Below are positions 10,187 through 12,090 of a stretch of 64,000 nucleotides of DNA, piece after piece (within the stretch, counting starts at the first letter, position 1; each line of letters begins with the position of its first letter). This DNA comes from a virus. The stretch lies in IMG/VR virus record IMGVR_UViG_3300027784_001663. The stretch is one strand, 5' to 3'. Position numbers and translations under genes: made by a program. Under the pieces are notes generated by a model. The model saw only the letters and a list, made by a program, of their open reading frames with translations, had not been told where the DNA came from and searched no databases.

Positions 10187-10549
10187 TTATATATCAAGAT
10201 GATCAAATTTATTTGAAGAATCATCTTCTGCTATTTCTCTAAAAATATTATCTCTAGTATAAACGACATCTATTTGCCATATATTATCAAAAGAAACATC
10301 TTTAATTTTAATAAAATTAGAATTTTGAAAAACCATAAAATCAGCACTATCTTCATTAACTTTTTCAACCCTAACATCAGGATAATTTGAAATATGCTCT
10401 CCCCCACTATGAGTTACAATTTTAATGCTAAGAGAAAAATTTATTAAATGAGACTTTAATGCATTCAATAATTTTTTAATCTTCTCTTCATCATGAATAT
10501 TAACATCCGCTGCGGTAGTAATTATTTTTTTCTTCCTTATAAATCTCAT
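10187..10549 (-). CDS. Hypothetical protein with C-terminal NKFDHLDI tag
   Basis: 120-aa beta-rich ORF, operonic with dnaE-N; ends SSNKFDHLDI*. Confidence 0.6.
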   Translation of the reverse strand: MRFIRKKKIITTAADVNIHDEEKIKKLLNALKSHLINFSLSIKIVTHSGGEHISNYPDVRVEKVNEDSADFMVFQNSNFIKIKDVSFDNIWQIDVVYTRDNIFREIAEDDSSNKFDHLDI

Positions 10550-10552
10550 ATT

Positions 10553-10819
10553 TTACCTATGTTTTGTAGGATCATACTTTTCTCTATGTCCATCTTTATA
10601 ACGAACATATTTAGGTTTCATTTTTCTTACATATTCAGGATCTTTTTCAAAAACTTCAGCATTTTTATCTACAATTCTTACAGTATTTTTAGGAGGATTA
10701 AAAACTCTTTCACATACAGTCCCATCCTCAAGAATATAATTACTATTATAATCTTTAAAATCTCTTATTACATCAAATATTTCACCATTTTTAGGATTTT
10801 TATAAGAATATATTGGCAT
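10553..10819 (-). CDS. FmdB-type zinc-ribbon-like protein that has lost most cysteines
   Basis: MPIYSYKNPKNGEIFDV...GTVCERVF matches the FmdB pattern MPxYxYxCxxCGxxFE...CPxCG...RxF, with Cys positions replaced; GGGGA RBS. Confidence 0.55.
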   Translation of the reverse strand: MPIYSYKNPKNGEIFDVIRDFKDYNSNYILEDGTVCERVFNPPKNTVRIVDKNAEVFEKDPEYVRKMKPKYVRYKDGHREKYDPTKHR

Positions 10820-10841
10820 ATTGTCCCCTATTTATATTTAA

Positions 10842-10870
10842 TATATAAAATATTTTTTATCACTTTTCAA
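10842..10870 (-). promoter_or_regulatory. Putative promoter TTGAAA-AGTGATAA..(17 nt spacer)-TATATA upstream of the fmdB-like/dnaE cluster
   Basis: Second exact copy of TTATCACTTTTCAA (10857-10870), directly after the upstream stop codon. Confidence 0.6.
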
Positions 10871-11065
10871 TTAAATATCTAATAAAATAAATTTATTAAA
10901 TTTATTACATATTAATACTTTAATATCGGTATTTTTTTTAATATTATTTAATAAAAAAACGGAGGGAACTTGAAATGAATAAGAGATAGTATTACCTATT
11001 TCTTTTAAAAATAAATTATAATTTAAAAAATTAGAATCTTCATTTAATGGTAAAGACTTTATCAT
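10871..11065 (-). CDS. Small hypothetical protein with C-terminal NKFILLDI tag
   Basis: 64-aa, extremely AT-rich ORF; credibility rests on operon packing and the shared C-terminal motif. Confidence 0.4.
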   Translation of the reverse strand: MIKSLPLNEDSNFLNYNLFLKEIGNTISYSFQVPSVFLLNNIKKNTDIKVLICNKFNKFILLDI

Positions 11066-11106
11066 TATTATAAATTTAAATATCTAATAAATTAAATTTA
11101 TTAAAT
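10871..11106. repeat. 31-bp direct repeat (30/31 identical) at 10871-10901 and 11076-11106 covering the 3' ends of two ORFs
   Basis: ttaaatatctaataaa[a/t]taaatttattaaat; the first 12 nt recur at 11308-11319. Confidence 0.85.
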
Positions 11107-11306
11107 AATTTATTTTTTGATTTATCATTTTTTCTTATATTATTTTGATTAATATCATCTGAATATACTTCAAGATTTTTTGATTTAAATCTATGTTCAA
11201 GATCAACATACTTATAATCATTGTAATTATCATAAGAAATATAATCTTCATAATAATTATAAATAAATGTATTCTTAAATAATATTTTAATATCTTTATT
11301 ATTCAT
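11076..11306 (-). CDS. Small hypothetical protein with C-terminal NKFNLLDI tag
   Basis: 76-aa AT-rich ORF starting 1 nt after the stop of the peptidase gene. Confidence 0.45.
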   Translation of the reverse strand: MNNKDIKILFKNTFIYNYYEDYISYDNYNDYKYVDLEHRFKSKNLEVYSDDINQNNIRKNDKSKNKLFNKFNLLDI

Positions 11307-11307
11307 T

Positions 11308-12090
11308 TTAAATATCTAACATCCCATACTTATTTTCTTTACTATTAAATATATTTTCTTTTTTATTTGAAATAGTTCCTTCATTATATTGTTTTATATA
11401 AATATCAATAAGATCTTTACCTTTTTTAAAAACTTTTTCATCCATTAAATTTTCAATTATTTTGTTATATTTATTACAAATTCTAACTTTCTTTTTTCTA
11501 GTAAAATTATTATATTCTTTAGGTGAAATATTATTTTGTAATAAAACTTCCTTTAAACATTCTTTATAAACAATTCCACTCATAGCAGGGTAGAAATATT
11601 CTTCTATGATCTTTTCATCACTATATCCTATTTTTTTGAGATATGGGACAGACCACCCATAGGCGAATTCTTCAATAATTTCTGTTGTAAATGATTGCAT
11701 ACCTTGTTCATAATAACAGTAATGTAACAACTCATGTATTAAGACAACTTCATCTGGAACTTTACCTTCTTTCCTTTTTCTTTTTCTTAGATTACGATTA
11801 TTAGAAAATAAAATTACTTTTAAATCTGGTAAATAAAATCCATCAGCATGAGAAAAACCTCTTTTATCTAGTAACGATTTAGGGGCCTTGTAAACAGAAA
11901 CATCTTTGACATTACAATTTGGAAAAAGAGAATTTACATATTCAAAAGCTATTTTATTTTCCTCATATCCAACTGTTTTAGTTCTACAACTGCTAATTAT
12001 TTTTTTGACATTAGAATATAACTTTTCAATTTCTTTTTTCTTTGAAGCAAGATATTTTCTTTTCTTATTTGAATATTCTATTTTATCCAT
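11308..12090 (-). CDS. Zincin-like metallopeptidase (HEXXH...E) with C-terminal NKYGMLDI tag
   Basis: HADGFY...EVVLIHELLHY followed by IIEEFAY (candidate third ligand Glu). Confidence 0.65.
   Translation of the reverse strand: MDKIEYSNKKRKYLASKKKEIEKLYSNVKKIISSCRTKTVGYEENKIAFEYVNSLFPNCNVKDVSVYKAPKSLLDKRGFSHADGFYLPDLKVILFSNNRNLRKRKRKEGKVPDEVVLIHELLHYCYYEQGMQSFTTEIIEEFAYGWSVPYLKKIGYSDEKIIEEYFYPAMSGIVYKECLKEVLLQNNISPKEYNNFTRKKKVRICNKYNKIIENLMDEKVFKKGKDLIDIYIKQYNEGTISNKKENIFNSKENKYGMLDI

Follow-up and report, generated by a model that had tools for sequence, protein, structure and literature searches.

A shared C-terminal peptide on unrelated proteins of an uncultured huge-phage clade, a candidate docking tag

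That proteins can share a terminal docking peptide is well established, as exemplified by the clamp tails of phages T4 and Mu, PIP boxes, the T4 capsid-targeting sequence, PTS1, and the XB peptide of SspB. The C-terminal tails of T4 and RB69 gp43, gp55, and gp33 dock on the gp45 clamp, MuC docks on the clamp of the host, and a complex of the RB69 clamp with a peptide was reportedly described by Shamoo and Steitz in 1999. In the T-even capsid-targeting sequence, the encapsulin cargo peptides, and PTS1 (SKL at the C-terminus), one terminal peptide is carried by many proteins and read by one receptor. Furthermore, the XB peptide docks on the N-domain of ClpX, the GQYL tails of Mpa and Bpa and the HbYX tails dock on 20S proteasomes, and the tip of SSB (D-D-D-I-P-F at the C-terminus) serves as a replisome interaction code. 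The bacterial beta-clamp-binding motif, with the consensus QL[SD]LF or Qx[DE][LM]F and in a further form QLxLxL, is found on Pol II, Pol III, Pol IV, Pol V, Hda, and MutS and on MuC/Mor of phage Mu (PMC12867686). Here, a peptide of comparable layout is described from a 64,000-nucleotide (nt) stretch of viral DNA (IMG/VR record IMGVR_UViG_3300027784_001663), the whole of which is referred to as the window, and in which four neighboring genes on the minus strand, between positions 10187 and 12090, end in N-K-[FY]-x-x-L-D-I-stop (hereafter, the tag).

The tag had been noticed in a preliminary description made from the DNA letters, and the translations of the open reading frames (ORFs) confirm it at all four sites. 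The carriers are a protein of 120 amino acids (aa) (10187–10549; NKFDHLDI-stop, tag and stop codon at 10187–10213), a 64-aa ORF of 15% guanine-cytosine (GC) content (10871–11065; NKFILLDI-stop, 10871–10897), a 76-aa ORF of 13% GC (11076–11306; NKFNLLDI-stop, 11076–11102), and a 260-aa protein with an HEXXH-type HELLH sequence (11308–12090; NKYGMLDI-stop, 11308–11334). All four lie on the minus strand, as does every gene of the window, directly upstream of dnaE and within a replication module that occupies 0.5–26 kb and is followed by giant structural proteins; the 76-aa ORF starts 1 nt past the stop of the HEXXH gene. The bodies had been described as unrelated, and BLASTP without the tails indeed links none of them. 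The window is AT-rich (22–31% GC). Its ORF ends were compared with shuffled controls. The exact C-terminal pattern [FYW]xx[LMI]D[ILF] occurred in four ORFs against 0.11–0.13 expected, and none of 2000 shuffles reached four; this count left out the 120-aa ORF owing to an overlap filter and included the gene at 6413–6781 (FDEIDF-stop), absent from the preliminary description, such that five ORFs match, against approximately 0.12 expected, when the 120-aa ORF is added. At the DNA level, a 27-nt pattern with at most three mismatches was found at the four sites only, whereas 0.31 are expected from shuffles and none of 100 shuffles reached four.

A repeat at gene ends might equally be a DNA-level element overlapping them, such as a promoter, a terminator, or a recombination site, or a chance product of AT-rich sequence. 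The motif does contain TAA, and the two middle copies, on the 64- and 76-aa ORFs, share approximately 30 nt of DNA, which points to recent duplication. By contrast, the outer copies differ from the middle ones in the codons for leucine (CTT/TTA), isoleucine (ATA/ATT), lysine (AAG/AAA), and tyrosine or phenylalanine (TAT/TTT), as the preliminary description had stated. Within single related genomes, the same tag residues are likewise written in varied codons (Arg as CGA, AGG, or AGA; Phe as TTT or TTC; Asp as GAT or GAC; Ile as ATT or ATA; Leu as TTG or TTA), and the tags of the locus L030 differ by 33 synonymous and 10 non-synonymous changes. The tags of relatives are closed by TAA, TAG, or TGA, after which the DNA is unrelated. 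Given the synonymous codon differences, the varied stops, and the lack of conservation downstream, what selection maintains is the peptide rather than a DNA element, which bears out the earlier suggestion drawn from the window alone; the promoter, terminator, or recombination-site reading was rejected on the synonymous variation and the non-conserved flanks. Furthermore, every copy lies in one reading frame relative to the stop, orthologues in genomes of differing GC content keep the peptide, and the enrichment is 30- to 130-fold over expectation, so that a DNA element or an AT-rich coincidence is extremely improbable. The two further assemblies available for this phage match the window at 100% identity and thus provide no dN/dS information from polymorphism.

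The tag is also present on the C-termini of homologues. In a full HMMER scan, the family of the 120-aa protein comprised 51 representative clusters, nearly all of which end in [TSN]-[RK]-[FWY]-[DSG]-[LFM]-[LM]-D-[IL] followed by 0–10 mostly acidic residues; the tag aspartate is in one of only three alignment columns conserved at 90% or more, and the segment just before the tag varies. Eight homologues of the HEXXH protein keep the tag, with ends such as FTFLDLDD(DD), FSFMDIE, WDLIDLE, VSLLDLDD, FDNLDLD, and FSMIDFGEF. A scan of IMG/VR with the single HEXXH protein returned nothing and an alignment was needed as the query, with which 15 relatives were obtained on contigs of up to 548 kb, two of them rated complete. 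The consensus across this clade is R-F-[DE]-[IL]-[LM]-D-[LI]. Searches for cultured relatives found none: tblastn with the HEXXH protein gave 0 matches in 50,697 phage records, the DnaE matches were all at most 35% identical, and MT835501 was rejected as a relative on inspection. The phage of the window is a member of an uncultured huge-phage clade sampled from sediments of soda lakes and elsewhere; its own contig came from soda-lake sediments (JGI 3300000557, SRR490134), and the database holds a 79-kb contig of it.

The number of tagged genes differs among these relatives. In a syntenic relative of 113 kb (G001), the DnaE of which is 52% identical to that of the window, the tag is found on the orthologues of both the 120-aa and the HEXXH proteins and on two further proteins elsewhere in the contig (four C-terminal matches against 0.14–0.28 expected). 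Across a 351-kb contig (G002), 33 of 473 ORFs are tagged against 0.25 expected; they represent 26 body families and end in R-F-[DE]-I-L-D-L-stop, often with P-I-x-x just ahead. In the 20-kb part of that contig first considered (L029), approximately half of the ORFs end in R-x-[DE]-[IM]-[LM]-D-[LI]-stop, some of them lying between two halves of dnaE. The complete 461-kb genome G006 has 11 tagged genes (1.07 expected) from 11 body families, unrelated and dispersed, with the variant F-D-x-[IL]-D-[LIV]-[DE]-stop; ten tagged ORFs ending in S/T-R-F-E-[LI]-M-[DE]-I-stop are found in L027, and five in L004. Tagged genes cluster around replication genes. The tag has genome-specific dialects, the similarity being 0.417 within genomes and 0.250 between them (permutation P = 2e-4), although duplication of tags within a genome may explain part of this gap; when only orthologues were compared, three of five genomes showed the same direction.

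With respect to the carriers, the AlphaFold2 (AF2) model of the 120-aa protein consists of an N-terminal helix and a five-stranded barrel, with a predicted local distance difference test (pLDDT) score of 79 and a tail below 50. Its best fold match is Hfq 1kq1 (Z 8.8, root-mean-square deviation 1.6 Å over 60 residues), other matches being WYL domains and SspB at Z 5.5, and a small beta-barrel fold of the Sm/Hfq-like kind is hence predicted. The N-terminus of the family, M-R-F-I-R-x-E-x-I-I-T-T (window 10514–10549), is conserved and of low confidence in the model; it may constitute a second interaction segment. For the 260-aa protein, AF2 predicts a helical structure plus a small sheet around HELLH...EEFAYGWS (pLDDT 83; residues 242–260 below 50), and the fold matches of this model, to collagenase, IrrE/ImmA, an MA-type peptidase, and SprT-like zincins, are weak; together with the two sequence signatures they suggest a zincin-like protein. 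In both modeled carriers, the tag lies within the disordered last 10–20 residues, which is typical of a short linear motif.

The two tiny ORFs are likely translated, judging from their sequences. The in-frame codon scores are 0.40 for the 64-aa ORF and 0.43 for the 76-aa ORF, where chunks of real genes score 0.485 ± 0.10 and off-frame chunks −0.92, and an open frame of this length has a chance of 1e-4 to 5e-4 in the local composition of 13–15% GC. The JGI gene call includes both, and the 76-aa ORF is present in two gene calls. By contrast, neither has a Shine–Dalgarno sequence or a detectable homologue, and the 64-aa ORF has no family in Pfam or PHROG. The preliminary description had named a motif no more frequent than AT-rich sequence predicts, its absence from homologues, and untranslated small ORFs as grounds for abandoning the idea; none of these was encountered, since the motif is enriched in the window and in relatives, is present in homologues, and sits on small ORFs that look coding. 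Searches of Pfam and PHROGs for carrier functions gave almost nothing. The recognizable carriers of relatives are one DUF4116 repeat protein, paralogues with weak RHS/YD-like (YD/MORN-like) repeats, and a further family of repeat proteins; in addition, the N-terminus of a few carriers is hydrophobic and, by eye, resembles a membrane helix.

The enrichment, the conservation in orthologues, the disordered tails, the dozens of unrelated bodies, and the selection at the peptide level together provide good support for an address tag, and it is highly probable that the tag works by binding a common partner. The peptide would be a portable short linear motif ending a disordered C-terminal tail, and would dock many unrelated, mostly small proteins, encoded in and around the replication module of this huge-phage clade, onto one common receptor. 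Of the undescribed addressing system originally proposed, the shared docking or addressing peptide is therefore well supported, whereas a strictly C-terminal degron is hard to reconcile with the 1–10 additional, mostly acidic residues that follow the tag in many orthologues. The motif is terminal in the window and in G002 and is followed by one or two acidic residues throughout G006, so that it is not consistently formed by the very last residues as in a free-carboxylate signal of the ssrA type or one read by a PDZ domain; no PDZ domain is encoded among five large relatives.

The leading named candidate for the receptor, though less likely than not, is a divergent sliding clamp of the beta type that the phage itself encodes; in that case, the tagged proteins would be carried along phage DNA during replication, adjacent to DnaE. 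The second DnaE polypeptide of the window ends in ...GIDSVDMFK-stop, with S-V-D-M-F at 6811–6825 on the minus strand, one residue before the C-terminus. The BLASTP alignment closes with GIDSVDMF opposite AIGQADMF of E. coli alpha (917–924), and relatives keep ESVD[LIM]F. By this alignment, SVDMF is the positional homologue of QADMF, the known internal motif through which E. coli Pol III alpha binds the beta clamp, and the phage DnaE ends there; the replicase would therefore use a beta-type clamp. Furthermore, a conserved DnaN-like protein of 411–437 aa (L044–L048) is present in each of the five large relatives, of which two are complete; one member matches TIGR00663 at E = 6e-9, beta-clamp domains of Pfam are found below threshold and in the right order, and the only PDB match of the family profile is a beta clamp. 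This DnaN-like clamp is very divergent, and standard models miss it or score it below threshold. A conserved gene of 385–399 aa without a known family comes after it in the clade. In G006, a 374-aa gene (260091–261215) is the next but one upstream of the clamp gene, with a 249-aa ORF between them (region 260091–264541); it starts with a KYRP motif of the DnaX/RFC type and, by eye, looks clamp-loader-like.

The tag itself shows likeness to both kinds of clamp-binding peptide. Its register x-[FWY]-[DSG]-[LFM]-[LMI] parallels QL[SD]LF and Qx[DE][LM]F, as a polar-hydrophobic-[DSG]-hydrophobic-hydrophobic arrangement on terminal disordered segments, in a clade that has a DnaN-like clamp candidate and a DnaE with the homologous motif. 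When aligned as [RKN]-[FWY]-[DSGE]-[LFMI]-[LMI], it fits positions 2–4 of the beta motif; however, the Q is exchanged for R, K, or N, position 5 usually lacks F and holds L, M, or I instead, and D-[LI], the most conserved part of the tag, is an addition. In comparison with T4 and RB69, F-D-[IL]-[LM]-D-[LI]-stop parallels the L-F-D-M-F-D-F-stop of RB69 gp43 and the S-L-D-F-L-Y-EDDN-stop of gp55 (both from AY303349), with the same residue classes at six positions, and a short hydrophobic-acidic peptide at the extreme C-terminus is similarly shared by unrelated proteins, small non-enzymatic ones included. By contrast, the replicase here is a C-family DnaE and not a B-family polymerase, the clamp found in relatives is beta-like and not of the gp45 type, the carriers number dozens instead of a handful and are mostly small proteins without known function, and the polymerase's own tail (SVDMF) differs from the tag. 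A B-family polymerase with the same tail beside a gp45-type clamp was not encountered, no search for gp45-type clamps having been made.

Several observations weigh against the clamp as the receptor. The DnaE motif ESVD[MIL]F is unlike the tag and constant across genomes while the tag drifts, and the family of the 122-aa protein encoded at 6413–6781 bears a tail of the DnaE type and not the tag, which suggests that two separate sites, or two receptors, are involved. The carriers, with their DUF4116 and YD/MORN-like repeats, membrane-helix-like starts, zincin, and Sm-like protein, are atypical clamp clients. Among the classical clients, the NAD-ligase of G006 has no tag, and no FEN-type exonuclease was found. 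No phage clamp is known to serve as many as 33 clients in a single phage. Within the window, a clamp gene was not found. Two of its ORFs were considered and rejected as clamps: the 370-aa ORF (5280–6392) has no match in Pfam, PHROG, or PDB and a poor Atlas model, and the 359-aa ORF (24190–25269) has an N-terminus that is clamp-like by eye but a 12-member family profile that finds no clamp in PDB. A complex prediction of E. coli beta2 with residues 81–120 of the 120-aa protein scored 0.08 and is neutral on binding. The explanation as a whole, namely an address tag docking its carriers on one receptor with the clamp as the likeliest named partner, is tentatively preferred, as plausible rather than probable.

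The resemblance to clamp-binding motifs would also suit a conserved host protein as the target, such as the host beta clamp, an AAA+ protease for which the tag is a degron, RNA polymerase, or a similar hub, and the carriers would then serve in host takeover or be early proteins of short lifetime. In favor of this, they are numerous, small, fast-evolving, and of the early-gene type. However, if the pocket were that of a highly conserved host protein, a tag that drifts between genomes while being uniform within each would be less expected, and the acidic extensions past the tag in many orthologues argue against a free-carboxylate degron; a host target is quite unlikely.

A dedicated phage receptor other than the clamp is a serious possibility that nonetheless falls short of being probable. 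In that case, the tag would be a proteome-wide address code, somewhat like PTS1, that directs as much as 7% of the proteome of a huge phage, including small effectors of the binder type, an Sm-like protein, and a zincin, to a single machine or location. This destination could be a complex of AAA+ and zincin for remodeling or degradation, a site for capsid cargo, or a compartment for replication, and each genome would co-evolve its own tag dialect.

One specific receptor of this sort, the Ycf46-like AAA+ ATPase of the clade, is by itself unlikely. The carriers would dock onto it with the small binders as adaptors or substrates and the zincin as a detachable protease partner, to yield a split FtsH-like or an SspB/ClpX-like remodeling or degradation machine. 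Every relative seen has the AAA+ gene within the same module, in two cases with inteins, which usually reside in essential genes. One carrier is a zincin, many are binder proteins of the repeat type, and the drift of the tag between genomes is as expected for a phage-encoded receptor. The 120-aa carrier is also laid out like SspB, with its Sm-like domain, disordered linker, and C-terminal docking peptide, in addition to the fold match; as in SspB, Mpa, and Bpa, the docking peptide is on a flexible tail, although the sequence of the tag is unrelated to XB, GQYL, and HbYX. However, the AAA+ protein itself ends in a shortened tag, [KR]-D-L-D-[LI], and therefore looks like a client and not a receptor, and no known peptide-binding domain was recognized in its N-terminal 340 residues. 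In the window, this protein (gene 17618–19435, minus strand) ends in NKDLDIEF (17621–17644), the tag-like tail already listed as a weaker echo, and its orthologues end in KDLDL, RDLDL, NIDIE, and IGIDLSE.

Alternatively, the tag might be a cargo-loading signal that packs small effectors and a protease into the procapsid for injection, by analogy with encapsulin cargo peptides, with the capsid-targeting sequence at the N-terminus of T4 internal proteins, and with the HK97 protease, which is targeted through its C-terminus. Like T-even internal proteins, the carriers are located in hypervariable loci, variable islands of unrelated or paralogous small genes with the terminal peptide as the only common feature, which is the pattern of the T-even internal-protein locus; the capsids of these phages are very large, and a protease is among the carriers. 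By contrast, the T4 sequence is N-terminal, cleaved, and unrelated to the C-terminal tag. The carriers lie in replication or early-looking gene blocks outside the structural module, and all large structural proteins of the window are untagged. Furthermore, some carriers open with a membrane-helix-like hydrophobic stretch, and the conserved Sm-like carrier is overlapped by the start of dnaE in G001. Capsid loading is accordingly regarded as improbable.

Besides the AAA+ tail, the other echo reported earlier is also present. The 318-aa protein (gene 20015–20971, minus strand) ends in the partial tag KKYNFLRI (20018–20041), and K-[YF]-N-F-L is kept in its G006 orthologue, which ends in ...SKFNFLEEQE. 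The 122-aa protein (6413–6781, minus strand), located between dnaE and the 370-aa ORF, ends in ...EDFDEIDF-stop; this tail is acidic-aromatic and nearer to the DnaE type than to the tag, and those of orthologues read ADFDFLS, ENFDTIE, DEIDMFD, and DDEFDFD. The replication proteins of the clade mostly end in acidic-aromatic tips, a second, SSB-type tail code beside the tag that the 122-aa protein shares, with ...DDMNWL, DALPF, or NFDIDF on the SSB-like protein, ...EGLDW or NFDFEDF on DnaB, and ...DEDYDSL on the Gam-like protein; in the window, genes with such tips are located at 4500–5195, 15223–16773, 525–1028, and 14168–14521. The tag resembles the SSB tip as an acidic-hydrophobic C-terminal peptide but lacks P-F, has its own R-F...L-D-L pattern, and is carried mostly by non-replisome proteins, so that it is not of the SSB type.

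The module includes a Gam-like protein, SpoVS (1148–1462), a Cas4-like exonuclease, the Toprim half of primase, RecA, and an SSB-like protein, together with a split DnaE, PrsA (PRPP synthetase, 13203–14171), the zinc-ribbon half of DnaG, DnaB, the AAA+ ATPase, IF3 (19496–20011), a methylase, and a helicase; SpoVS, PRPP synthetase, and IF3 are present as homologues. SpoVS and the Shine–Dalgarno sites hint at a Firmicutes-like host. The split DnaE (6805–10166) consists of a 474-aa and a 643-aa polypeptide, whose coding sequences are separated by 5 nt. In relatives, DnaE is unsplit in G001 and L027 (998 aa), whereas its halves are approximately 2.4 kb apart in G006 and are separated by eight small ORFs, seven of them tagged, in G002/L029; in L007, it is split with an intein in the second half. 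Between the tagged genes of the window, an 88-aa protein (10553–10819) has a strongly conserved C-terminus of its own that differs from the tag, ...[KR]-[YF]-[RK]-D-G-H-R-E-[KR]-Y-D-P-T-[KR]-H-x-stop in its family, with orthologues at L001 9488–9655 and G006 195783–196070. Mobile elements are also found: intein or homing-endonuclease sequences interrupt the AAA+ gene at L001 149–2021 and L005 2143–4746, RecA of G001 contains an intein, and TnpB/IS605-type (Cas12f-like TNB) insertions are located at G001 8578–9705 and 26923–27126 and, among tagged genes, at L027 945–2189. A homing-endonuclease-like gene, encoded on the opposite strand, separates the HEXXH gene from the 120-aa gene in G001, and short ORFs of this relative at 10439–11416 and 12806–13009 consist nearly entirely of Ser/Trp repeats (SSSWSWAWSSS...), which may be a simple-repeat region and not genes.

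While the principle is known, the peptide itself is new, as are its scale, with up to 7% of ORFs and 26 unrelated families in one genome, and its setting in an uncultured clade of huge phages; a full-text literature search for the tag strings returned no relevant paper, and the RB69 tail string was likewise not found. Genes of huge phages are mostly without known function, and the tag groups dozens of unrelated small proteins by a common partner, such that a single pull-down or two-hybrid bait of 7–12 residues could place 5–7% of a proteome. The tag is also a simple marker for the clade and may serve as a portable engineering tether. If the receptor is the phage clamp, these phages would possess a viral clamp tool-belt of unprecedented size, with accessory functions tied to replicating DNA; if it is something else, the tag would represent a new viral code for protein sorting or protein turnover.

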